Below are positions 28,925 through 39,310 of a stretch of DNA of 64,000 bases, one piece after another. The DNA comes from a bacterium (GTDB lineage: Bacteria; Patescibacteriota; Minisyncoccia; UBA6257; HR35). The translations under genes were made by a program, and so were the position numbers. The notes under the pieces were generated by a model, which had not been told where the DNA came from, made no database searches, and worked only from the letters and a program-made list of their open reading frames with translations. Position 1 is the stretch's first letter. Each line of letters begins with the position of its first letter. The stretch is taken from contig JBEQAR010000004.1 of the NCBI GenBank assembly GCA_041640295.1, forward strand, positions 3,128 through 67,127. The letters are read 5' to 3'.

Positions 28925-29023
28925 ATGGTTAAAAAGGAAAGTAAATCTAATATTTTTTTGATAATACTTATCGTTGTGATTATTTTAGGAATGATTTTAA
29001 GTTCATTAGCTTTTATTTTTTAA
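28925..29023 (+). CDS. Possible small hydrophobic peptide (32 aa), not in the ORF track
   Basis: ATG...TAA ORF encoding MVKKESKSNIFLIILIVVIILGMILSSLAFIF with a single TM-like helix. No homology support. Confidence 0.2.
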   Translation: MVKKESKSNIFLIILIVVIILGMILSSLAFIF

Positions 29024-29070
29024 TTATATTAATAAAAAATTATATTAATGTGTGAGAATTATTAAATAAA

Positions 29071-29637
29071 ATGGCAGGAATAAAAAATGACGAATGGATA
29101 AAACATATGGCTAAAAAGCATAAAATGATTGAACCTTTTGTTGAAAAGCTTGTTTCCAAAGGCAAAGTTTCTTATGGTCTTTCAAGTTATGGTTATGATA
29201 TGAGAGTTGCTGATGAGTTTTATATTTTTCATAACGCTTATCCAACTGAAGTTATTGATCCTAAAAATGCTAAAGAAAGTTACTTTATTAGACATAAAGG
29301 TAAGGTTTGTATTATCCCTCCCAATTCTTTTGTTTTAGCTAGATCAGTTGAATATTTTCGAATTCCAAGAAATGTTTTGGGTATTGTTTTTGGAAAATCA
29401 ACTTATGCCCGCTGTGGGATTATTGTTAATGTGACCCCATTAGAGCCAGAATGGACTGGAACGCTGGTTATAGAAATCTCTAACACAACACCTCTGCCAG
29501 CTAAAATTTATGCTAATGAGGGAATCGCTCAAGTGATATTTTTAGAAGCTGATGAACCCTGCAAGGTTTCTTATGCTGATCGCAAAGGAAAATATCAAAA
29601 ACAAAAAGGCATAGTTTTACCAAAAGTAATTAAATAA
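29071..29637 (+). CDS. dcd: dCTP deaminase
   Basis: 188 aa, length and overall pattern consistent with dCTP deaminase. Confidence 0.85.
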
Positions 29638-29649
29638 AAGTCGGCCATT

Positions 29650-29825
29650 AAATCAACCGCGAACTAGTGCAAACGGCGATAATAAACGCGAACCAATGCG
29701 AACAAGTGAGTATAATCACTACCCATGCAAACAAACAAAAGTTCGCAGGAGTTCGCGTGAAACCTTACCTGACGCCCGCCTATCTGGCGGACAGGGCAGG
29801 CAGAGTTTGCAGTAGTTCGCATTAT
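29650..29825. repeat. GC-rich palindromic repeat element: left arm RCGAAC units, right arm GTTCGCR units (intergenic copy)
   Basis: Left arm has ccgcgaac, gcaaac, acgcgaac, gcgaac, gcaaac. Right arm has gttcgca, gttcgcg, gtttgca, gttcgca. Central GC palindrome gcccgcc...ggcggac. GC far above the flanking ~28%. Confidence 0.7.
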
Positions 29826-29835
29826 ATTATCAAAA

Positions 29836-30225
29836 ATGGAATTTATCTTCCTTCTTTCAAGACTTATTCTTGGTCTTTATTTTTTATTTAATGCTTTTAA
29901 TCATTTTACAAAATTAGCTATGCTTGCTGAATATGCTAAAAGTAAAAATGTTCCAATGCCAAAATTGGCTGTTATATTTACGGGTTTTCTTTTATTAATT
30001 GGAGGCATTTCAATTTTGTTAGGAATTTATATAGAAATAGGAGTTTTAGCTTTAACTATATTCTTTTTACCAGTAACTTTTATAATGCATAATTTCTGGC
30101 AAATTCAAGATCCGCAAATGAAAATGATGGAAATGATAAATTTTTCAAAAAATATAGCAATTTGGGCAGGAGTTTTACTTTTACTTTTTGTTCCTCAACC
30201 TTGGATTTATTCGTTGGGCTGGTAA
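29836..30225 (+). CDS. DoxX family membrane protein
   Basis: 129 aa. Four TM helices, DoxX-like LILGLYFLFNAFNHF. Confidence 0.65.
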   Translation: MEFIFLLSRLILGLYFLFNAFNHFTKLAMLAEYAKSKNVPMPKLAVIFTGFLLLIGGISILLGIYIEIGVLALTIFFLPVTFIMHNFWQIQDPQMKMMEMINFSKNIAIWAGVLLLLFVPQPWIYSLGW

Positions 30226-30264
30226 ATTTAATTCGGAATTAGTTCTCAATATTATCAAGAAAAA

Positions 30265-30684
30265 ATGATAATCAAAAAATTAAATAACAACAATTATCTT
30301 TTACGGATTGAACCCAACGAAGAATTATTCGGTTCGCTTTTAAATTTTGCCCAAAAACACAAAATTAAGTCAGGATTTTTCTATGGTATTGGTGCTTGTA
30401 AAACTTGTATAATTGGAAGATATAATGAGAAGAAAAAAGATTATGATTGGAAAAAAATTAAACAGCAAATGGAGATCGGTAGTTTAATTGGTAATTTAAC
30501 TTATAAAGAAGGGCATTACTATTTACATATTCACACTGTTTTTGGAGATAAAAATTTAAAAACTTTGTCAGGACATTTAAAAGAACTTATAGTTTTTCCA
30601 ACTTGTGAGATAATGTTTTTTGCTTTTGATAAGAAAATTGAAAGAAAATATGACAAATTAACAAATCTGTTTTTGATTGGGTAA
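30265..30684 (+). CDS. PPC (DUF296) domain protein
   Basis: LRIEPNEEL...GIGA...YLHIHTVFGD...SGHLKELIVFPTCEI pattern typical of PPC/DUF296. Confidence 0.55.
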   Translation: MIIKKLNNNNYLLRIEPNEELFGSLLNFAQKHKIKSGFFYGIGACKTCIIGRYNEKKKDYDWKKIKQQMEIGSLIGNLTYKEGHYYLHIHTVFGDKNLKTLSGHLKELIVFPTCEIMFFAFDKKIERKYDKLTNLFLIG

Positions 30685-31133
30685 TGTTATCAAAAATAGA
30701 TCAATTTATAATCAGAACCCTACAAAAAATCTGGAGACCATTAGCAAAAATTTCTATCTTTATTATTTTCTTTTATTTTGGGTTTTTGAAAGTTCTGGGC
30801 TTAAGTCCAGCTAATCCTTTAGTCTCAGCCCTACTTCAGCAAACTATTGATTTTGTTCCTTTTGAAAAATTTGTTATTCTTTGGGGATTTTTTGAAATGC
30901 TTATTGGTTTAACATTTATTACTCCCAGATTAGAAAGAATAGCAATTTTTCTTTTATTACTTCATATGATTATAGTTGCTTTACCATTAATATTACTTCC
31001 TCAAATTACTTGGCAGAAATTCTTAGTTCCAACATTAGAAGGTCAATATATAATTAAAAATTTAGCTATAATTTCTTTAGCTTTAGTTATTGGCGCTCAT
31101 TTAAAAAATAACCAAGATAAAATTTTTAAATAA
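30684..31133 (+). CDS. Hypothetical integral membrane protein
   Basis: 149 aa. Four predicted TM helices. Translationally coupled to the upstream ORF. Confidence 0.4.
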   Translation: MLSKIDQFIIRTLQKIWRPLAKISIFIIFFYFGFLKVLGLSPANPLVSALLQQTIDFVPFEKFVILWGFFEMLIGLTFITPRLERIAIFLLLLHMIIVALPLILLPQITWQKFLVPTLEGQYIIKNLAIISLALVIGAHLKNNQDKIFK

Positions 31134-31165
31134 AAATTTATTAAATTTATTAAATTGAAAATTAT

Positions 31166-32110
31166 ATGGAAAAATTTTTACAAGAATTCAAATTACAATT
31201 TCAATTCAAACCAGTAATAGAAAATTTAAATAACTTTAAAGGTAAAAACAAATTCTTAATCGTTGGGATGGGTGGTTCTCATTTAGCAGCTGATTTATTA
31301 AAAATAACCCATCCCTTTTTAGATTTAACTATCATTAGTGATTTTAATTTACCTCAATTGTCAGATTTATTAGAAAGGAAAATTATTTTAATTTCTTATT
31401 CTGGAAATACTTTAGAAACTATTAATGCTTTGCAAAAATTAGAACGAACCAAAATTAAACCTTTGATGATTTCAGCTAATGGCTTACTCTTAGCTCGAGC
31501 GAAAATTAATAAATATCCTTATATTGAATTACCAGAGAAAAATTTACCACCTAGATTAGCGATTGGTTATCTTTACTTAAGTCTATTAAAAGCTATTAAT
31601 GATGAGAATTCTTTAAAAAAGATTAGTGGAGACTTAATAAAATTTAATTTTTCAAAAATTCAAAAAAGAGCTTTAACCTTGTCATTGAAATTGAAAGGAA
31701 AAATTCCTATTATTTATTCATCTTTTATTAATTATCCGTTGGCTTATAATTTTAAAATAAGATTTAACGAAACAGCGAAAATTCCAGCTTTTTGCCATTA
31801 TTTACCCGAAGCGAATCACAATGAAATTCAGGGTTTTTATAGGTTGAAAAAAATTTTTTATTTTTTGCTATTAGAAGATAAAACAGACTCTAAAGAATTA
31901 ATAGCAACATTCAAAACAATTAAGAAATTTTTAAAAGATAAAAAATTTTTTGTTGAAAGTTTAACTCTTGATGAAAAAGATGTATTTAAAAAAATTTTTT
32001 CAGCAATTCATTTAGCGGATTTGTTAAGTTTTTATCTAGCGAAAATTTATAAGTTAGATCCATTATCTACACCATTTATTGATGAAATTAAAAAAAGATT
32101 AAAAATTTAA
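31166..32110 (+). CDS. SIS-domain bifunctional phosphoglucose/phosphomannose isomerase-like protein
   Basis: IVGMGGSHLAADLLK SIS motif. 314 aa. Directly upstream of the glucokinase. Confidence 0.55.
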   Translation: MEKFLQEFKLQFQFKPVIENLNNFKGKNKFLIVGMGGSHLAADLLKITHPFLDLTIISDFNLPQLSDLLERKIILISYSGNTLETINALQKLERTKIKPLMISANGLLLARAKINKYPYIELPEKNLPPRLAIGYLYLSLLKAINDENSLKKISGDLIKFNFSKIQKRALTLSLKLKGKIPIIYSSFINYPLAYNFKIRFNETAKIPAFCHYLPEANHNEIQGFYRLKKIFYFLLLEDKTDSKELIATFKTIKKFLKDKKFFVESLTLDEKDVFKKIFSAIHLADLLSFYLAKIYKLDPLSTPFIDEIKKRLKI

Positions 32111-33273
32111 TGGGATTTTTCTTAGGCGACATTGGCGGAAGTAAAACAAGATTGATTTTTCTTGATTCAGAGAAAGATTTAAAAAAGCAAAATTTGAAAA
32201 TTTTTAAAACCCCTCAGAAGTATAAAGAATTTTTGGAATTATTAAGAAATGAGTATGTGGTACGAATTAATAGAAACCACAATAAACTAATACAAACAGA
32301 TAAAAATACTAACAATAATCGCGACTCTATACAAAAAAATAAAGTTCGCATCAATTTGCGTGAAAGTTCGCAATGGTTTGCGGCAAAGAAAACGAGAAAG
32401 ACTGTTTTTGGGTTTGCAGGTATGCTTGATGAAAAGAGAGAAAAATTAATTTATGCTCCGAATTTAAAAGATTTTGAAAATAAAAATTTAAAAAGAGATT
32501 TAGAAAAAATCTTGGAAACAGAAGTTATTTTAGAAAATGATGCTACTTTAGCTGGTTTAGGAGAAGGGAAATACGGAGTAGGTAAAAATTTTGATGTTTT
32601 TGGATATATAACTTTGTCAACAGGAGTAGGAGGCGCAAAAATTGTTAAGACGCGAACTAATACGAACTATAGCGAACTGATGCGAATAGATACTACAACA
32701 CGAACGGATACGAACAATGATAATAACCACGAACCAATACGAACAAATAATAGTTTATATGAGTTCGCGCCTAATGATAATGTTCGCAATAGTTCGCGAG
32801 AAAGTTCGCAATGGTTCGCGGTTGATATAAATAAATTTGGTTTTGAGCCTGGACACTCTTTTTTGTTATTAACGCAGACAGCCGCGGACTTAACGCAGAC
32901 ACTCTTTAACAATGTTCGCGGCAGTTCGCGTATAGTTCGCGGTAGTTGGCGTAAAAACTTATTTGAGATCGAAGAACTGCTTGGTGGAGAAAATATTGAG
33001 AAAACTTTTGGTAAAAAACCTGAAGAGATAAAAGACAAAAAATTTTGGAACTTTTATCATCAAATTCTTTCAATTTTTTTAATCAATGTTTCAATTTTTT
33101 GGTCTGTTGATAAAATAATTTTAGGCGGCGGAATTACAAAAAGTTTAGATTTTAAAAAATTAAATTCTCTAGTGAACAAACTCCACCCCTTGCCGATAAA
33201 AATACAAATAATAAAATCAAAACTCGGTGAAATGAGTGTTTTATATGGAGGATTAGTAAGGAGCGGTATCTAA
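32110..33273 (+). CDS. glk: ROK-family glucokinase carrying two in-frame GC-rich repeat insertions
   Basis: ROK motifs MGFFLGDIGGSKTRL, ENDATLAGLGE, GYITLSTGVGGA, ILGGGI. Two insert segments of about 45 aa and about 100 aa encode low-complexity peptide, including a duplicated RESSQWFA. Confidence 0.7.
   Translation: MGFFLGDIGGSKTRLIFLDSEKDLKKQNLKIFKTPQKYKEFLELLRNEYVVRINRNHNKLIQTDKNTNNNRDSIQKNKVRINLRESSQWFAAKKTRKTVFGFAGMLDEKREKLIYAPNLKDFENKNLKRDLEKILETEVILENDATLAGLGEGKYGVGKNFDVFGYITLSTGVGGAKIVKTRTNTNYSELMRIDTTTRTDTNNDNNHEPIRTNNSLYEFAPNDNVRNSSRESSQWFAVDINKFGFEPGHSFLLLTQTAADLTQTLFNNVRGSSRIVRGSWRKNLFEIEELLGGENIEKTFGKKPEEIKDKKFWNFYHQILSIFLINVSIFWSVDKIILGGGITKSLDFKKLNSLVNKLHPLPIKIQIIKSKLGEMSVLYGGLVRSGI
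32265..32400. repeat. GC-rich GTTCGCR-type repeat element, in-frame insertion 1 in glk
   Basis: Right part has gttcgca, tttgcgt, gttcgca, gtttgcg. Left part has degenerate caaac/aacaa units. Confidence 0.6.
32650..32960. repeat. GC-rich inverted tandem-repeat element, in-frame insertion 2 in glk
   Basis: Left arm is 8 copies of RCGAAC spaced by a ~10-bp period (with two ~18-19-bp lapses). Right arm is 5 copies of GTTCGCR at 10-12 bp spacing (one ~19-bp lapse), then ttaacgcagaca x2, then 3 more GTTCGCG at 10-11 bp. Arms are reverse complements. Confidence 0.75.
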
Positions 33274-33318
33274 TTTACGCTATTTTTAAATTTTCACAAT
33301 TTATTTTATAATTAATCT

Positions 33319-33540
33319 ATGTCAAGAATAATTTTTGACCCAAAGATTTTAAGAGGGAAGCCGATTATTAAAGGAACAAGAATTTCTGTTGATTTAATTT
33401 TGGAACTTTTGGCTAATAATTGGTCAATTGAAGATATTTTAAAACAATATCCCCAACTAAAAAAACAAGACATTCTCGATGCTTTAAAATATTCTGCTAA
33501 GAGAATTAAGAGAGAAGAAACTATTTTAATTTCTAAATGA
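33319..33540 (+). CDS. DUF433 family putative antitoxin
   Basis: 73 aa. FDPKILRGKPIIKGTRISVDLILELL matches the DUF433 signature. 4-nt overlap with downstream ORF. Confidence 0.65.
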   Translation: MSRIIFDPKILRGKPIIKGTRISVDLILELLANNWSIEDILKQYPQLKKQDILDALKYSAKRIKREETILISK

Positions 33541-33857
33541 AATTTCTTTTGGATGAAAATATTCCTTTTGAACTTCAAAATTATTTAGCAAAATATAAAA
33601 TTTCAAGCTCTCATCTTTTAGGTTTGAAACTGAAAGGACTAAGCGATGAGGAAGTTTTCGATTATGCACAGAAAAGAAAATTTATAATAATTACTTTCGA
33701 TAAGGATTTCTTAAATGAGAAATTTTATACCCAATCCCATTACGGAGTAATTTATATTTCACCTAAAATCAAAGATTTAGATAAATTAGCAGAAGCAATT
33801 TTTAAAACGATTAAAAGTTATAAAAGTTTTAAAAACAAAGTTGTTATTATTCAATAA
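33537..33857 (+). CDS. DUF5615 (PIN-like, Mut7-C-type) putative toxin
   Basis: MKFLLDENIP start and acidic PIN-like residues. Canonical partner of DUF433. Confidence 0.6.
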   Translation: MKFLLDENIPFELQNYLAKYKISSSHLLGLKLKGLSDEEVFDYAQKRKFIIITFDKDFLNEKFYTQSHYGVIYISPKIKDLDKLAEAIFKTIKSYKSFKNKVVIIQ

Positions 33858-33926
33858 AGATAAGCTTTGACAAAATTAGAATTTAATATGAGGCTTTTTA
33901 ATAGCCTAAGGGCTAGCGGTTAGTTT

Positions 33927-33998
33927 CGGGCTGTGGTGCAGTGGAAGCACGCTGGCTTCGGGTGCCAGAGGTCGTGGGTTCAAATCCCACCAGCCCGA
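33927..33998 (+). tRNA. tRNA-Pro (anticodon CGG)
   Basis: Manual fold: acceptor CGGGCTG/CAGCCCG (7 bp), D-arm GTGC-AGTGGAA-GCAC, anticodon arm CTGGC-TTCGGGT-GCCAG (anticodon CGG, G37), T-arm GTGGG-TTCAAAT-CCCAC, discriminator A. No encoded CCA. Confidence 0.85.
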
Positions 33999-34021
33999 AA
34001 AGAATATGTTAAAATATCAAA

Positions 34022-34432
34022 ATGACTGCTTTGGCTTTAATTTTTACTTTAGCGGCAATTGGAATTAGTGAAACTGTTTATCTTATTCGCAAAAGAATTG
34101 CTTCGGAAAAACCTGTTTGTATTTTAGGTGAAGATTGTGTAACTGTTTTAACCAGCAAATATAGTCGATTATTTATTATTCCCAATGATGTTTTAGGTTT
34201 TTTAGCGTATATTGTTATTGCAACAATTTCAGCATTTTTAGTAATTGGCGTTGAACCAATTTATTTTTGGAGTCTAATTCTTAAAATTCTAGTCTTTGTC
34301 GCTTCATTAATATCTCTTTTATTTACTTATCTTCAGTGGCGTGTTATTAAAGCTTGGTGTTTTTGGTGTTTAATGTCAGCTTTTACGATTTGGCTAATGG
34401 GTGTTATAATATTAGCAAGCCCAACAATTTGA
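34022..34432 (+). CDS. VKOR (vitamin K epoxide reductase) family disulfide-forming membrane protein
   Basis: 136 aa with several TM helices. Loop Cys pair CILGEDC and TM CxxC (WCFWCL) typical of bacterial VKOR. Confidence 0.55.
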   Translation: MTALALIFTLAAIGISETVYLIRKRIASEKPVCILGEDCVTVLTSKYSRLFIIPNDVLGFLAYIVIATISAFLVIGVEPIYFWSLILKILVFVASLISLLFTYLQWRVIKAWCFWCLMSAFTIWLMGVIILASPTI

Positions 34433-34449
34433 GAATAAAGCTAATAGTT

Positions 34450-35700
34450 TTACAGACCAACTTCGTGGGGAAGGTTATTTAAAATAAACTCCTGTGGTTT
34501 TTCTGTAAAAATAATTCTTTTACCTAAACATTGAGCAAAACCGATTTCTAAGAGAGCCGAAGCTCCTACATATCCATCTGGATCACAAACTATTAAAGCA
34601 TCTGAGTTAGCAATTGAGTTTAAATGATAACGTTCTAATTCTAAAGGAGATAAACCTTCTTCGCCAGTGAAAATAACAAATTCTTCTCCAGGATTTTTAG
34701 GTTCGACAAACCTCGGACTAAGAACTTTTACACCTTTATTTTCTAATTCCTCTTTGATCTTTAAAATATAATCCAAATGTTTTCTAAAGCTTCCGCTCAA
34801 AGTTACATATCTAAATTCTTGTCTAATAACGCCATTTATCAAATTTGAATCAGAAGGAATAATTTTTTCAATATTATACTCTTCGCAGATAGCTTGAGCG
34901 ATTCCTGAAAAAGCTCGAGCTCCATGCATCCATTTAGGGTTATCAGGCATCAATCCTTCTAATTCTTTTAAAGTTATTTTTTCGTATATTTCCTTATTTT
35001 TATTTTTATAATCTTTTAAATCAATTAAGAATGGATGATCTTCGTCTTCAAATAAATAGTTTTTTCTTAATGGATAATTTGCTAATTTCATATAAGTTAA
35101 TTCTCCTCCTGAAAGAAAGGCTATTTTTGGTTTATTCTCTAAAGGAACAAGTTTCTGTTTTACATAACTCACAATCTCTTCTAATTTTATTTTTGAAATC
35201 TCCTCATTAATTTCTGGGAATTCAGTTAAAATTGTACCAACTCCTAATTCTAAATTTTTTCTTTCAATTGCCTCATTACCGTACATTATTACTAGTTCAG
35301 TTGTTCCTCCTCCAATATTAATCAAAAGGATCGGCTCATCAAGGTGACACTTTCCTATTAAAGCTTTTTCTAAATAAAAATTCTCTAAATCTTGAGAAAT
35401 AATATTGAAGTATAAACCTGTTCTTAAGAAGACTTCATCAATGAAGGATACTTTAGTTTGCGGAGATAACTTCCGAAAAATACCTGTAGCATAGATTTTA
35501 ATTGGGATGTTAGGATGTTGGGCTTTAACTGCGTCTAAAAGTTCAAAAAGTTCCTTTTTATTTTCTGGAGATATTCCTCCTTCGGGATCAAAACCTTCTT
35601 TAAAAAAGAGTGAACGCTGCATGTGGAGCTCCAATCTTTGTTTTGAATATTTATAAACCTTTACCGTTGAAGAACCTATATCTAAAAGAATTTTTTCCAT
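34450..35700 (-). CDS. Ppx/GppA-family phosphatase fused to a nucleoside 2-deoxyribosyltransferase-like C-terminal domain
   Basis: N-terminal ASKHA fold LLDIGSSTVKVY...INIGGGTTEL. C-terminal ~110 aa with DPDGYVGASALLEIGFAQCLGKRII resembling the NDT-like Rossmann motif. Confidence 0.5.
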   Translation of the reverse strand: MEKILLDIGSSTVKVYKYSKQRLELHMQRSLFFKEGFDPEGGISPENKKELFELLDAVKAQHPNIPIKIYATGIFRKLSPQTKVSFIDEVFLRTGLYFNIISQDLENFYLEKALIGKCHLDEPILLINIGGGTTELVIMYGNEAIERKNLELGVGTILTEFPEINEEISKIKLEEIVSYVKQKLVPLENKPKIAFLSGGELTYMKLANYPLRKNYLFEDEDHPFLIDLKDYKNKNKEIYEKITLKELEGLMPDNPKWMHGARAFSGIAQAICEEYNIEKIIPSDSNLINGVIRQEFRYVTLSGSFRKHLDYILKIKEELENKGVKVLSPRFVEPKNPGEEFVIFTGEEGLSPLELERYHLNSIANSDALIVCDPDGYVGASALLEIGFAQCLGKRIIFTEKPQEFILNNLPHEVGL

Positions 35701-35888
35701 TTGTTTGTTTTGCGAAAATAGACGACTTTTAATATTTAATTTTAATTTATAATTTAGACCACGATAGACTCCACCTTAAGATGTTCTAAAACTTTTATAA
35801 CATAAAACCCCCTATGTCAAGCTTCTTATATTTGAATATTAGGTTATAACCTCTATAATATAATTAAGTATTTAAATTAAGTATTTAA

Positions 35889-36269
35889 ATGACAAAAGCA
35901 GGGTTTCATATTTTAAGGGTTGGATTAGGGATAACATTTTTGTGGATTGGGGTTTTGATTTTTAAGCAGCCTGAAGCTTGGGGAGGATATTTAAAACCTT
36001 GGGCAGCTGGTCTTTTGCCTGTTCCTCTTTCGCAAGCAATGATAGGCACCGCAATTTTAGATATTGTTATAGGTTTTTTATTTCTTGTCGACACTTTTAC
36101 TTGGTTAGCCTCACTACTTGCAACTATTCATCTTATCATTGTTTTAACTGTTAGTGGTATCACTGATATAACTGTAAGAGATATAGCTATTTTAGCTGGC
36201 GCGATAGCAGTTTTACTTGATTCCTTACCGCAAAAGTTTCTTGACAAATTTAAAATTTTTAAAAAGTAA
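35889..36269 (+). CDS. Hypothetical membrane protein
   Basis: 126 aa. Predicted TM helices. No domain recognised. Confidence 0.4.
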   Translation: MTKAGFHILRVGLGITFLWIGVLIFKQPEAWGGYLKPWAAGLLPVPLSQAMIGTAILDIVIGFLFLVDTFTWLASLLATIHLIIVLTVSGITDITVRDIAILAGAIAVLLDSLPQKFLDKFKIFKK

Positions 36270-36310
36270 AGTATAATTGATACAAGTCGTCATTAACTAA
36301 ATAAAATTCT

Positions 36311-36847
36311 ATGAAAAATAAAATTCCTATAATCACTATAGCCGTCGGTTTAGTTATTATTTTAGGGTTTGCTGGTTATTACTTTTATAAAAAATCTACC
36401 CCTAGCCCAACACCAGAATTTCAAATTTCTCAACCACTTCAACCATCAGAAGAGGTTCAGCCACTACCAGAAGTAACACCTCCAGCTCCAACTGAACCTA
36501 CAGCAACTCCTTCATCCGAAGTTCAACCCCCAACCCAAAATGTTGTTATTTATACTGACTCTGGTTATTCGCCAAGTACTTTAAGAATCAAAGTTGGAGA
36601 AACTGTTACATTCAAAAATCAAAGCTCTCAAGCAATGTGGCCAGCTTCTGCTATGCATCCAAGCCATACAGTCTATAGTGGTACTTCTTTAGATGAACAT
36701 TGTCCTGATACAGCGGGAATAGCTTTTGATGCTTGTACTGGAATTCAACCAGGTAATTCTTGGAATTTTACCTTTAACAAAAAAGGAAGCTGGAAATACC
36801 ACGACCATCTAAATCCTTCATTTACCGGTACAATTATTGTTGAATAA
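36311..36847 (+). CDS. Secreted/membrane-anchored protein with Pro/Thr-rich linker and cupredoxin-like domain
   Basis: N-terminal TM or signal, PT-rich low-complexity linker, then beta-rich domain. TLRIKVGETVTFKNQS resembles the cupredoxin strand 1 pattern. His/Cys residues present but the ligand set is not canonical. Confidence 0.35.
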   Translation: MKNKIPIITIAVGLVIILGFAGYYFYKKSTPSPTPEFQISQPLQPSEEVQPLPEVTPPAPTEPTATPSSEVQPPTQNVVIYTDSGYSPSTLRIKVGETVTFKNQSSQAMWPASAMHPSHTVYSGTSLDEHCPDTAGIAFDACTGIQPGNSWNFTFNKKGSWKYHDHLNPSFTGTIIVE

Positions 36848-36849
36848 CA

Positions 36850-37719
36850 ATGAAGAAAATTATTTTTACTTTATCCCTTCTCTTTTTATTTAATTATCTT
36901 AATCAATTTACTTTTGCACAAGAAATCAATCTATCTCGTGATTTATATCTTGGTTTAAAAGGAAAAGATATAGAATTTTTGCAACAATTTTTAGCTAATG
37001 AAGGTGTTTATCCAGAAAAATATATCACTGGTTACTTTGGTCCTTTAACTAAAAAAGCAGTTATTAGATTTCAACAAAAATACAATATCTTTCCTCAACT
37101 TGGTTATGTTGGTCCCAAAACAAGAGCAAAGATTAACGAATTAATTTTACAAACAAAGTCAACAAAATCTTGTCCGACTATCGCACTTGATACCTCTAAA
37201 GGCAAAGAAGAATGTTTAAAATCAGCTGAATATCTTAATAAGATATATCCTGGATGTAATTATGCAAAAATATGTGAAGCAACTTCTTACCAAAAACCAT
37301 TTTTAGATTGTGGTCCAGCTCCAGGAGCGCCAGGAACTTGGAGATGTATTGATGGTATTTGGAAAAATATTAGTCAATGTGGAAAAATTCAATGTATCAG
37401 ATACGATCCAGTTTGTGGTACTGATGGTAGAACTTACGCTTGCGGAGAAGCTGATGCTGAATCTTGCGGTGTAGAAGTAGCTTACAAAGGAGAATGCAAA
37501 AAACAAGAATATCCAGCTCCGCCTCTTCCTAAGGAACGACCAGCAACATCATCAAAAAGTGTTCCAGCTCAAAGATTGCCTCAACCAATTTTCTGCACTC
37601 AAGAATGGAATCCAGTTTGTGGAGTAGATAATAAAACCTATTCTAATGAATGTATGGCAAGAGCAGCTGGCGTTGAAGTTAAATATAAAGGTGAGTGTCA
37701 ATCGACAATGAGTCGTTGA
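36850..37719 (+). CDS. Secreted protein with peptidoglycan-binding domain and two Kazal-type inhibitor domains
   Basis: Signal peptide. PG_binding_1-like LKGKDIEFLQQFL...GYFGPLTKKAVIRFQ. Two Kazal signatures, C-x(5)-PVCGTDGRTYA-C...C and C-x(5)-PVCGVDNKTYSNEC...C. Confidence 0.65.
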   Translation: MKKIIFTLSLLFLFNYLNQFTFAQEINLSRDLYLGLKGKDIEFLQQFLANEGVYPEKYITGYFGPLTKKAVIRFQQKYNIFPQLGYVGPKTRAKINELILQTKSTKSCPTIALDTSKGKEECLKSAEYLNKIYPGCNYAKICEATSYQKPFLDCGPAPGAPGTWRCIDGIWKNISQCGKIQCIRYDPVCGTDGRTYACGEADAESCGVEVAYKGECKKQEYPAPPLPKERPATSSKSVPAQRLPQPIFCTQEWNPVCGVDNKTYSNECMARAAGVEVKYKGECQSTMSR

Positions 37720-37736
37720 TTTTAAATATTTTATAA

Positions 37737-38180
37737 ATGGAAACAAAAACACATTATCCTTTAATCAGAACAATTTATCTTTATATTTTTGCTCTTTTGG
37801 GTTTGGTTCTTCTAATTGTTGGCAGCGTACGGTTTTTGGATATGGCTCTTAGGGCCTTTGTTTTTACTGCGGCTGAAAAAGAGGAAAGATTATGGAGTAA
37901 ACAACCTCCATTTCCGCCAATAGAAATAGCAAAGATTGGCAGAGTCGAAGGCGAAAAATTGTCTCCCAAAGAAGAAGTTAATCTTTCTAATGAAGAAAAA
38001 GCAATAATTGATAACTGGATTATTCAGTATAATAATTGGCGTGAAGAACGAGCTAAGATTGACCCGGTAACTTCAAGAAGACATCGAGAAGCATCTTTAA
38101 ATTTAGCTTTTATTCTAATAGGGTTGCCCTTATATCTCTATCACTGGTCTATAATCAGAAGAGAAACAAAAAAACAATAA
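37737..38180 (+). CDS. Hypothetical membrane protein
   Basis: 147 aa, two predicted TM helices. No domain recognised. Confidence 0.35.
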   Translation: METKTHYPLIRTIYLYIFALLGLVLLIVGSVRFLDMALRAFVFTAAEKEERLWSKQPPFPPIEIAKIGRVEGEKLSPKEEVNLSNEEKAIIDNWIIQYNNWREERAKIDPVTSRRHREASLNLAFILIGLPLYLYHWSIIRRETKKQ

Positions 38181-38355
38181 ATAATTTATAAAAATTGTCG
38201 CTTATTCTTATAAAAATTTATTAAAGAAGCTATTATTTTTCATAATTAATTTTTAGAAATAACATAAAAAACAAAATAATCTTAAATAAAAACTTGAGGA
38301 GTTAATTAAAAAGAAAGTGGTTTCAAAAATAAAGCTAAAAATTTATTAGCAAGTT

Positions 38356-38577
38356 ATGTTAATAAAAGTAAAAGTTTTCCCAAATTCAAAAGAAGAGATA
38401 ATAATTAAAAAATCTGAAGATAGTTTTGATGTTAAAATAAAAGAAAAATCTGAAAGAGGATTAGCTAATAAAGCAGTTATCAAAATTTTATCTTCTTATT
38501 TTAAGATTCCAATATCACAGATAAAATTAATTAAAGGCGCAAAACAAAGAAATAAAATTTTTGAGATAAAAATTTAA
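38356..38577 (+). CDS. DUF167 (YggU/UPF0235) family protein
   Basis: 73 aa. VKVFPNSKEEII...GLANKAVIKIL...IKLIKGAKQRNKIFEI matches DUF167 conservation. Confidence 0.5.
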   Translation: MLIKVKVFPNSKEEIIIKKSEDSFDVKIKEKSERGLANKAVIKILSSYFKIPISQIKLIKGAKQRNKIFEIKI

Positions 38578-38584
38578 TAATACT

Positions 38585-39310
38585 ATGAAACTTTATATCG
38601 TAGCAACGCCGATTGGGAATTTAAAAGATATAACCTTAAGAGCTTTGGAGGTTTTAAAATCTGTTAATTATATTGTTTGCGAAGATACAAGAAGAACAAA
38701 AAAATTATTAGATCATTATGGAATTAAAAATAAAAAATTAATTTCTTATTTTGCACCCCGAGAAGAAGAGAAGATTCCTTTGATTTTAAAAATTTTAGAA
38801 AAAGAAAATGTTGCCTTAGTTGTTGATGCGGGAATGCCGGGAATTTCTGATCCTGGTTATAAATTAATTAAGGCTTGTTTAGAGAAAACGCGGATTTACG
38901 CGGATATGACGAAAGATAATCAGCGTCTATCAGCGTCGAATCAGCGTGAATCAGCGTTAATAGAAATAGAGGTTTTACCGGGACCATCAGCATTTTTAAC
39001 TGCTCTTATTGGTTCAGGACTGCCAACTGATAAATTTTTATTTTTAGGATTTCTACCGAAAAAGGGATTAGAAAATTATTTAAGTAAATTTGAAAATTTA
39101 GAAGCAACAATAATTTTCTATGAATCGCCCCAAAGAATTCCAAAAACTTTAGATGTTATTGAAAAAGTTTTTGGAAATGTTGATATTGTTATTGCCCGCG
39201 AAATCTCGAAAATTTATGAGGAATATATAAGAGGAAAATTAAGCGAAATCAAAGAAAAATTAAAAAACAAAAAATTAAAAGGAGAACTAACTGTTATTTT
39301 TAGAAAATAG
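38585..39310 (+). CDS. rsmI: 16S rRNA (cytidine1402-2'-O)-methyltransferase with in-frame repeat insertion
   Basis: MKLYIVATPIGNLKDITLRALEVL...VCEDTRRT and PGISDPGYKLI motifs. About 24 extra aa (RIYADMTKDNQRLSASNQRESALIEI) sit between the KACLEKT and EVLPGPSAF blocks that are contiguous in E. coli RsmI. Confidence 0.85.
   Translation: MKLYIVATPIGNLKDITLRALEVLKSVNYIVCEDTRRTKKLLDHYGIKNKKLISYFAPREEEKIPLILKILEKENVALVVDAGMPGISDPGYKLIKACLEKTRIYADMTKDNQRLSASNQRESALIEIEVLPGPSAFLTALIGSGLPTDKFLFLGFLPKKGLENYLSKFENLEATIIFYESPQRIPKTLDVIEKVFGNVDIVIAREISKIYEEYIRGKLSEIKEKLKNKKLKGELTVIFRK
38885..38962. repeat. GC-rich inverted tandem-repeat element (ATCAGCGT type), in-frame in rsmI
   Basis: Left arm ACGCGGAT x2. 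Right arm ATCAGCGT x4 at 10-11 bp period. Arms are near reverse complements (ATCCGCGT vs ATCAGCGT). Confidence 0.7.

Follow-up and report, generated by a model that had tools for sequence, protein, structure and literature searches.

A decayed in-frame inverted-repeat element in a Parcubacteria-like glucokinase gene, probably one of a dispersed selfish family

Element A, a 126-nt in-frame insert in the glucokinase gene (glk) of a bacterium of the Parcubacteria/candidate phyla radiation (CPR) type, is probably an old and partly decayed copy, lacking a nuclease, of a modular, inverted-repeat type of selfish element resembling the Rickettsia palindromic elements (RPEs). The gene lies in a 64,000-nt stretch of contig JBEQAR010000004.1 (assembly GCA_041640295.1, positions 3,128 to 67,127 of the forward strand), referred to throughout as the window; coordinates without a contig label are those of the window. 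Related copies, built from short phased units in inverted left (L) and right (R) modules, occupy the same gene, a nearby spacer and unrelated genes of metagenomic contigs, and longer relatives carry a GxxExxY nuclease between their arms. The family is apparently undescribed and A would be one visible piece of a larger phenomenon; a literature search of incomplete coverage found nothing on such elements in CPR or on GxxExxY as a mobile-element enzyme. The host gene and element A are laid out as follows.

32110..33273, + strand: glk, ROK-family sugar kinase, 387 aa (Pfam ROK E=1e-18)
32260..32385, + strand: element A, in frame, glk residues 51-92 (42 codons, 126 nt), peptide VRINRNHNKLIQTDKNTNNNRDSIQKNKVRINLRESSQWFAA
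32260-32302: decayed L module of A
32303-32340: centre of A
32341-32383: R module of A

The R module of A consists of four GTTYGCR units (GTTCGCA at 32344, ATTTGCG at ~32354, GTTCGCA at 32366 and GTTTGCG at 32376) with the family spacing of 10 / 11-12 / 10 nt. Every unit listed in a preliminary description of this DNA was recovered at these positions. The interval given there, 32265-32400, had the right locus, with a start 5 nt late and an end ~15 nt too far. Upstream on the same strand lies the L module, which approximates the reverse complement of the R module and is far more decayed. The degenerate, A-rich left arm described earlier is nevertheless real. Nucleotides 32260-32302 match the L module of a second glk element, B (32650-32692), at 28/43 positions ungapped, the top non-self match to that module among the ~128,000 positions of both window strands; at 10 of 15 mismatches B has G/C where A has A/T. 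The window contains 20 GTTCGCR sites where 2.3 are expected, and none of 100 shuffles gave as many. Almost all of these sites are concentrated in four places, A and the following three.

32648..32822, + strand: element B, 8 CGAAC-type left and 5 GTTCGC right units, in frame, glk residues ~180-238
32872..32952, + strand: element C, hybrid (left units ACGCAGAC/CCGCGGAC; right units GTTCGCG x3 and GTTGGCG), in frame, glk residues ~256-282
29655..29823, + strand: intergenic copy in the dcd-DoxX spacer, 5 left and 4 right units

A profile hidden Markov model (HMM) of the R module, trained on metagenomic copies only with the window sequence excluded, matched A at 32344-32382 (E=3.1e-8), B (8.8e-14), C (2e-6) and the intergenic copy (3e-4), and all of its matches with E<0.01 in the window fell inside these four sites. 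Aligned end to end, A gave z=8.5 against B and z=7.3, at 60% identity, against an intact metagenomic copy. These comparisons bear out the claim of the preliminary description that a shorter in-frame copy of the same element lies inside glk. Its count of two inserts in the gene has to be raised; both are real, and C at ~32872-32952 is a third.

The R arms of A (32339-32383) and B (32777-32821) are 84% identical over 45 nt and both encode the peptide RESSQWFA. A common DNA origin of these strings had been proposed, and it holds at the level of the family. The A R module is 77-84% identical to other R modules and equally close, at 84%, to B and to the L139 copy from another metagenome. The nearest relatives of the B module are L134 (91%) and L150b (88%). 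A and B are therefore best read from these identities as members of a dispersed family with a family-level common origin, and not as a private duplication. What sets A and B apart is only the 'aatg' spacer of 'aatgGTTyGCgg', from which QW in RESSQWFA arises. RESSQWFA itself is their local form of a peptide found throughout the family, RE[SG]S[QHR]xFA. Element A is also read in the canonical stop-free frame (...VRxxxRESSxxFA), with KVRINLRESSQWFA comparable to NVRISSRESSQEFA and similar peptides. The sequence evidence confirms A as a copy, complete in its parts but decayed, of a modular element with inverted repeats.

Dispersal of the family was seen in a DNA pattern scan of public metagenomes, which returned 28 loci; 11 of them are low-GC contigs (0.28-0.39) with the same architecture. 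The L module, ~43 nt long, reads cGCGAAC-tgat-GCGAAC-ttaac-GCGAAC-taat-GCGAAC, with YGCGAAC units spaced 10/11-12/10 nt. The R module, aatGTTCGC-ataa-GTTCGC-gtgaaa-GTTCGC-aaga-GTTCGCg, is approximately its reverse complement, and an optional centre, tttaccgctaactaacGCGAACaacacGCGAACtaatGCGAAC, may lie between them. Modules multiply (L-L-centre-R in L146, L-centre-R-R in L145, four R in L158) or stand alone (L134, L143), and elements range from 80-290 nt. Tandem Repeats Finder (TRF) reported period-10 arrays in the arms. A hybrid subtype combines ACGCAGAC left with GTTCGC right units in element C, L138, L139 and L160. Host open reading frames (ORFs) encode an NAD-dependent epimerase/dehydratase, enolase, a 590-aa protein of unknown family, transketolase, a 2-hydroxyacid dehydrogenase, DUF411, MnmA and a 1380-aa intein-bearing protein that, identified by eye, looks like a class II ribonucleotide reductase. 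The modules are thus dispersed over unrelated genes and contigs, and do not form the single locus expected of a simple tandem repeat. In the 1380-aa ORF of L145 (ERZ1669249 NODE-406) we also observed an apparent intein (CVTGDTL...VHNCAEY), with the L-centre-R-R element ~25 codons past its end and a second, decayed repeat-peptide insert downstream (TRIDTNKSHELNTNNYTNKSRIENTRMG...IRDKFVNNQFV).

The remaining ~17/28 metagenome matches were rejected as unrelated; they were tandem arrays of high GC content or a Bacteroidetes-like motif ('GTTCGCaataGTTTGC') in upstream position. A 'ttttcGTTCGCaataGTTTGCnnnnnGTTTGCaataGTT(C/T)GC' motif stands beside gene starts in non-CPR contigs L136, L147, L148, L151 and L154-L157 (GC 0.44-0.53) and looks like a regulatory operator or promoter with no relation to the elements. 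The viral contigs L128, L129 and L132 (IMG/VR) carry plain direct, iteron-like tandem GTTCGC 10-mers (GTTCGCATAG x several) with no inverted layout and were likewise set aside. In a genome-contig scan for GTTCGC x3, the matches listed were only chance matches in high-GC genomes. A word-indexed protein search with the B peptide gave no candidates, and exhaustive phmmer with the same peptide against 1.84 billion representatives returned only the same glk (P0001) and its orthologue P0006. Search at the peptide level is too insensitive for short, variable inserts; the DNA pattern scan succeeded.

At 387 aa the glk product is longer than most of its 832 homologues (~265-280 aa), of which the nearest named ones come from Candidatus Parcubacteria metagenome-assembled genomes. 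At least four independent samples yielded the identical 387-aa protein, on 11 contigs in all, which rules out an assembly artefact as the source of the inserts. An AlphaFold2 model built from 115 sequences had a mean predicted local distance difference test score (pLDDT) of 83, a predicted template modelling score (pTM) of 0.81 and a core above 90. Low confidence (43-68) was restricted to residues ~52-92, 180-238 and 257-283, which are the inserts, and each of these sits between core strands or helices. The model matched ROK kinases of the PDB in Foldseek with target-normalised TM-scores of ~0.72-0.76. A, B and C are thus predicted by the model to loop out and leave the ROK fold intact, and both inserts of the preliminary description fall in loops of the modelled structure, as it had suggested should be examined. 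Inserts of at least 8 aa are found in the 115 homologues at roughly a dozen positions of the alignment. Those that recur, in as many as 9 sequences, fall in loops A, B and C and in a further loop following core column 92, and many of the inserts show repeat peptides typical of the element family. Tolerance of insertion by surface loops, one of the explanations offered earlier, is supported by the model and the homologues, with the correction that three different loops are involved and not a single one.

Most genic canonical GCGAAC/GTTCGC copies share one reading frame, giving (S/T)RT(D/N)AN or TQTxAD on the left and (N/D)VRxSSRE(S/G)SxxFA on the right; partial deviants are element C, L143, L125 and an insert in rsmI of L121, described below. 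The consensus element has stops in 4/6 frames. The open frames are +1, hydrophilic (mean Kyte-Doolittle hydropathy -1.33) and shared with the nuclease ORF described below, and -2, which is hydrophobic (+0.85). Because only +1 is both stop-free and hydrophilic, the frame bias would be the outcome expected of a filter against stops and hydrophobic loops. The inserts encode low-complexity peptides. Inspection by eye noticed no intein splicing blocks in the inserts or at the L146 junctions (FWIP/RTDAN..., ...HGFA/DVII), and Rfam, run over 29000-34000, matched no element, reporting only a tRNA and one sub-threshold sRNA. With neither intein blocks nor an intron RNA, the insert is expected to stay in the protein.

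Orthologous sites were compared with L164 (which encodes P0002) and L126 (AP024681, 'Candidatus Parcubacteria'), both syntenic over dcd-DoxX-PCC-glk and with a glk very similar to ours in the C-terminal half apart from the inserts. A and C are missing from both genes. At A the flanking codons are kept, and the loop differs from that of B, which agrees with the earlier proposal that A is an independent insertion. The intergenic copy is missing as well, the dcd-DoxX spacer measuring 25-28 nt in the two genomes versus 198 nt in the window. Site B is differently occupied. L164 and L126 carry a variant element there with CGAAT/ATTCGG units, the glk fragment P0006 (ENA) has four R modules (NVRISSHQSLHKFA and variants), P0009 retains a solo-L remnant and P0004 an R-then-L remnant. 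The sequence of P0006 shows an in-situ change in copy number, and from these variant, amplified and remnant forms in relatives B can be judged old and evolving in place. In glk of another species, a long CGAAC/GTTCG element occupies site C (L125). In 7/13 copies (window plus loci; background 0.235, p=0.017) TTAA precedes the first unit by no more than 18 nt, whereas 0/13 have it within the same distance downstream of the last unit. It also occurs at the two empty sites examined; a target preference for TTAA is possible and weakly supported.

Unit turnover at one position was also seen in a second gene of the window, where an element of another unit family occupies rsmI.

38885..38962, + strand: rsmI insert, ACGCGGAT x2 / ATCAGCGT x4, period 10-11, in frame in the rsmI (TP_methylase) ORF 38585-39310

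A strain 99.96% identical in the flanks has a different insert of ~175 nt at the same rsmI codon (L121:16406-16585), in which the left units are CGCAGAC and the right ones GTTCGCG x2 and GTCTGCG. We also observed that block 34413-38944 differs from the near-identical strains L121 and L122, part being 92.6% identical and part unalignable. This block and the rsmI element share their right-hand boundary, and a recombination breakpoint may therefore be marked by the element.

A nuclease is associated with longer relatives. In the L146 transketolase, a single ORF runs from host sequence through the L module ccGCGAACtgacGCGAACaacacGCAAACtgaaGCGAAT, a PDDEXK_3/GxxExxY domain (PF13366 E=7e-31; TIGR04256 E=4.5e-34) and the R module GTTCGCgtgaaaGTTCGCatggGTTCGCgg back into host sequence, and L143 and P0121 have the same nuclease fusion at the same transketolase site. 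All seven GxxExxY genes inspected (L146 and six free-standing genes) lie between inverted phased arrays whose unit varies by lineage, in a non-random set for which four had been picked for N-terminal repeat peptides. The arm units of the free-standing genes (left/right) are as follows.

L163: GCGAAC/GTTCGC
L162: ACAGACGC.../...GCGTATGTCT
L161: ACAGATGAT/ATCATCTGT
L165: AAATCTACAAAT/ATTTGTAGATTT
L167: CGCGAAT/ATTCGCG (34-nt arms, 91% complementary)
L169: ACACGAAT/ATTCGTGT

In several free-standing genes the start codon sits within the left arm, and the arm is read in the canonical frame (P0174: MQTSRTSANAAN); in L163 the GCGAAC-type L arm gives MQTSRTSAN in that frame. PF13366 is listed as of 'Unknown' function (PMC3424549).

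We propose that copies spread among low-GC Parcubacteria-like genomes and that, in these gene-dense genomes, they would persist only in spacers or, given a stop-free hydrophilic frame and a surface loop, in genes. The full-length relatives, with the GxxExxY PD-(D/E)XK nuclease between the arms and in the same frame, are likely the autonomous form. The nuclease may recognise the phased arrays or an extruded cruciform, and may mobilise both itself and, in trans, short L-R derivatives including A, in a MITE-like (miniature inverted-repeat transposable element) or homing-like manner. In-frame insertion would let host translation express it. More broadly, and tentatively, the GxxExxY proteins (PF13366/TIGR04256) could be the nucleases of an unrecognised class of mobile element, with helically phased 6-8-bp arrays that co-vary with the nuclease lineage, one-ORF elements expressed by fusion, and nuclease-less derivatives in the loops of CPR enzymes. 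We regard this wider proposal as plausible, and as less secure than the reading of A itself.

Several observations weigh against a mobile, nuclease-driven family. Neither the window nor the fetched flanks contain a GxxExxY gene, and the inspected nuclease genes are the selected set described above. The GCGAAC/GTTCGC unit family has no matches to the R-module HMM elsewhere in the window; its four copies lie within 3.3 kb (29655-32952), three of them in glk, a clustering more in keeping with local duplication or conversion than with random transposition. Local hopping, gene conversion and chance are all possible causes. The glk copies are present in all four near-identical strains compared, with no presence/absence polymorphism, and site B is filled across the clade with unit turnover and changes in module copy number, which favours evolution in situ over frequent movement. 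Comparison with the empty sites and inspection of 13 element junctions gave no clear target-site duplication or sharp terminus. The hairpin is not strictly conserved either. Hybrid arms are non-complementary (CGCAGAC vs GTTCGC), and A (z=-1.6) and C (z=-1.4) fold not significantly better than shuffled sequences. B folds moderately as a long hairpin (z=-2.4), and the intergenic copy forms a long DNA hairpin (z=-6.4, 0/200 shuffles).

The main rival to the proposal holds that the L-R palindromes came first and are a homing target, with the GxxExxY gene entering the centre of pre-existing palindromes that spread by other means, such as template switching, hairpin-primed synthesis or recombination. 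We consider it rather unlikely. The nuclease does lie exactly between L and R, where short copies have only the centre; among the loci seen, short copies far outnumber nuclease-bearing ones; and the window and fetched flanks have none. Yet the nuclease ORF includes the L arm, and free-standing copies take their start codon from it, suggesting that arm and gene form one integrated unit; the unit sequence shifts together with the nuclease lineage, and an independent spreading mechanism is not evident. Purely local origin, by slippage of a 10-11-nt unit and inverted duplication, with A and B related by intragenic duplication or conversion and no mobility, would suit the period-10 arrays, the in-situ variation in R-module number (four at site B in P0006) and the four copies within 3.3 kb. 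This account is largely refuted by the same 43-nt module and spacers in unrelated genes on unrelated contigs. A is, moreover, equally close to the L139 copy and to B, orthologous empty sites exist, and slippage accounts for amplification and not for dispersal; we judge a local origin highly improbable.

Selection for host benefit is improbable too, if somewhat less so. On this account the modules serve as flexible hydrophilic loops (for solubility, interactions or regulation) or as phased binding arrays or mRNA hairpins. One recurrent frame with a conserved hydrophilic peptide would fit, as would inserts that are intact and identical across several strains, and the 10-11-nt phasing suggests a protein bound to one face of the helix. 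Against this stand the intergenic copies, the decay of the left arm of A towards A/T, peptides that vary freely, unit families that differ between close relatives at the same site, and inserts predicted to be disordered and without contacts; stops and hydrophobicity account for the frame bias. The reading of A as a decayed copy of an RPE-like selfish element is the one we retain.

Three side observations concern the neighbourhood of these copies. Nested in the intergenic element at ~29760-29800 is a GC-rich mini-palindrome, CGCCTATCTGGCGGACAG, and a near-identical 18-mer, CGCCTGTCCGGCGGACAG, lies in frame in AP024681 glk (L126:10361-10384; VARLSGGQ); RVSPCLAGRQA-like inserts in P0042, P0023 and P0028 may share this mini-palindrome family. 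Immediately downstream of glk, a DUF433 / PIN-like (DUF5615) gene pair with overlapping stop and start (33319-33857) is likely a toxin-antitoxin system. It is followed by a tRNA gene at 33927-33998 (Rfam 68.9 bits).

Protein-coding palindromic selfish DNA has so far been treated as near-unique to Rickettsia, and its occurrence elsewhere was only speculated upon in a 2024 review of MITEs (PMC10969869). The present copies extend the phenomenon to Parcubacteria/CPR-like genomes, in glucokinase, enolase, transketolase, ribonucleotide reductase, MnmA and RsmI. They help to explain odd inserts and the longer-than-typical length of some proteins in these lineages, and affect gene calling, homology search and structure prediction there. 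The association with GxxExxY genes puts forward a concrete candidate, open to testing, for the missing enzyme, and gives that nuclease family a first hypothesis of function. If the proposal is true, the family would be the CPR counterpart of the Rickettsia RPEs, with its enzyme identified.

Several known systems share features with these elements. MITEs such as ERIC, Correia and BOX are likewise small, non-autonomous, bounded by inverted arms, sometimes intragenic in frame and presumed to be mobilised in trans (PMC10969869), and terminal inverted repeats within <300-500 bp are matched by our inverted L/R modules of 80-290 nt. In contrast to MITEs, no clear target-site duplication was found here, no DDE or other classical transposase relative is known, the candidate partner is a ~125-aa GxxExxY nuclease, and the arms are arrays of short phased units in place of a single terminal inverted repeat. 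The repetitive extragenic palindromic (REP)-associated tyrosine transposases (RAYTs) are Y1 (HUH) transposases. REPs are extragenic with a GTAG or CGTC head, and together with bacterial interspersed mosaic elements (BIMEs) and RAYTs they resemble our family in having short palindromic units in variable-copy mosaics and a small enzyme between inverted repeats (PMC3733652). The present copies differ in being largely intragenic 7-mer arrays, with an enzyme of the PD-(D/E)XK fold (PF13366).

Homing endonucleases, inteins and the rRNA insertions of CPR show a nuclease within a host gene and expressed through it, a recurrent site, and a lineage in which selfish inserts are common; there is no mention of palindromes or of PDDEXK in the paper on CPR rRNA insertions (PMC11270868). 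Unlike homing endonucleases and inteins, the short copies described here carry no nuclease. Yeast mitochondrial GC clusters are GC-rich palindromic selfish elements of an AT-rich genome and occasionally lie in frame (var1). They are organellar, have another sequence and are not known to hold a nuclease gene between arms.

The RPEs (Ogata et al. 2000 Science, 2002 Genome Res; summarised in PMC10969869) share with our family dispersed palindromic repeats of ~100-150 bp, in frame in unrelated housekeeping genes, with a recurrent peptide, a presumed position at the protein surface that spares protein function, and a host of reduced genome. A dispersed palindrome in frame in unrelated ORFs with a recurrent peptide is what was found here. 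Differences include the host, which is Parcubacteria/CPR-like and not of the Rickettsiales, and the arms, which here are phased 7-mers in four-unit modules that multiply in tandem and fall into several unit families. Longer relatives here also carry a PD-(D/E)XK nuclease, whereas the RPE review names no associated enzyme (PMC10969869). Compared on the published description of RPEs, the present family is best treated as an RPE analogue and not as a member.

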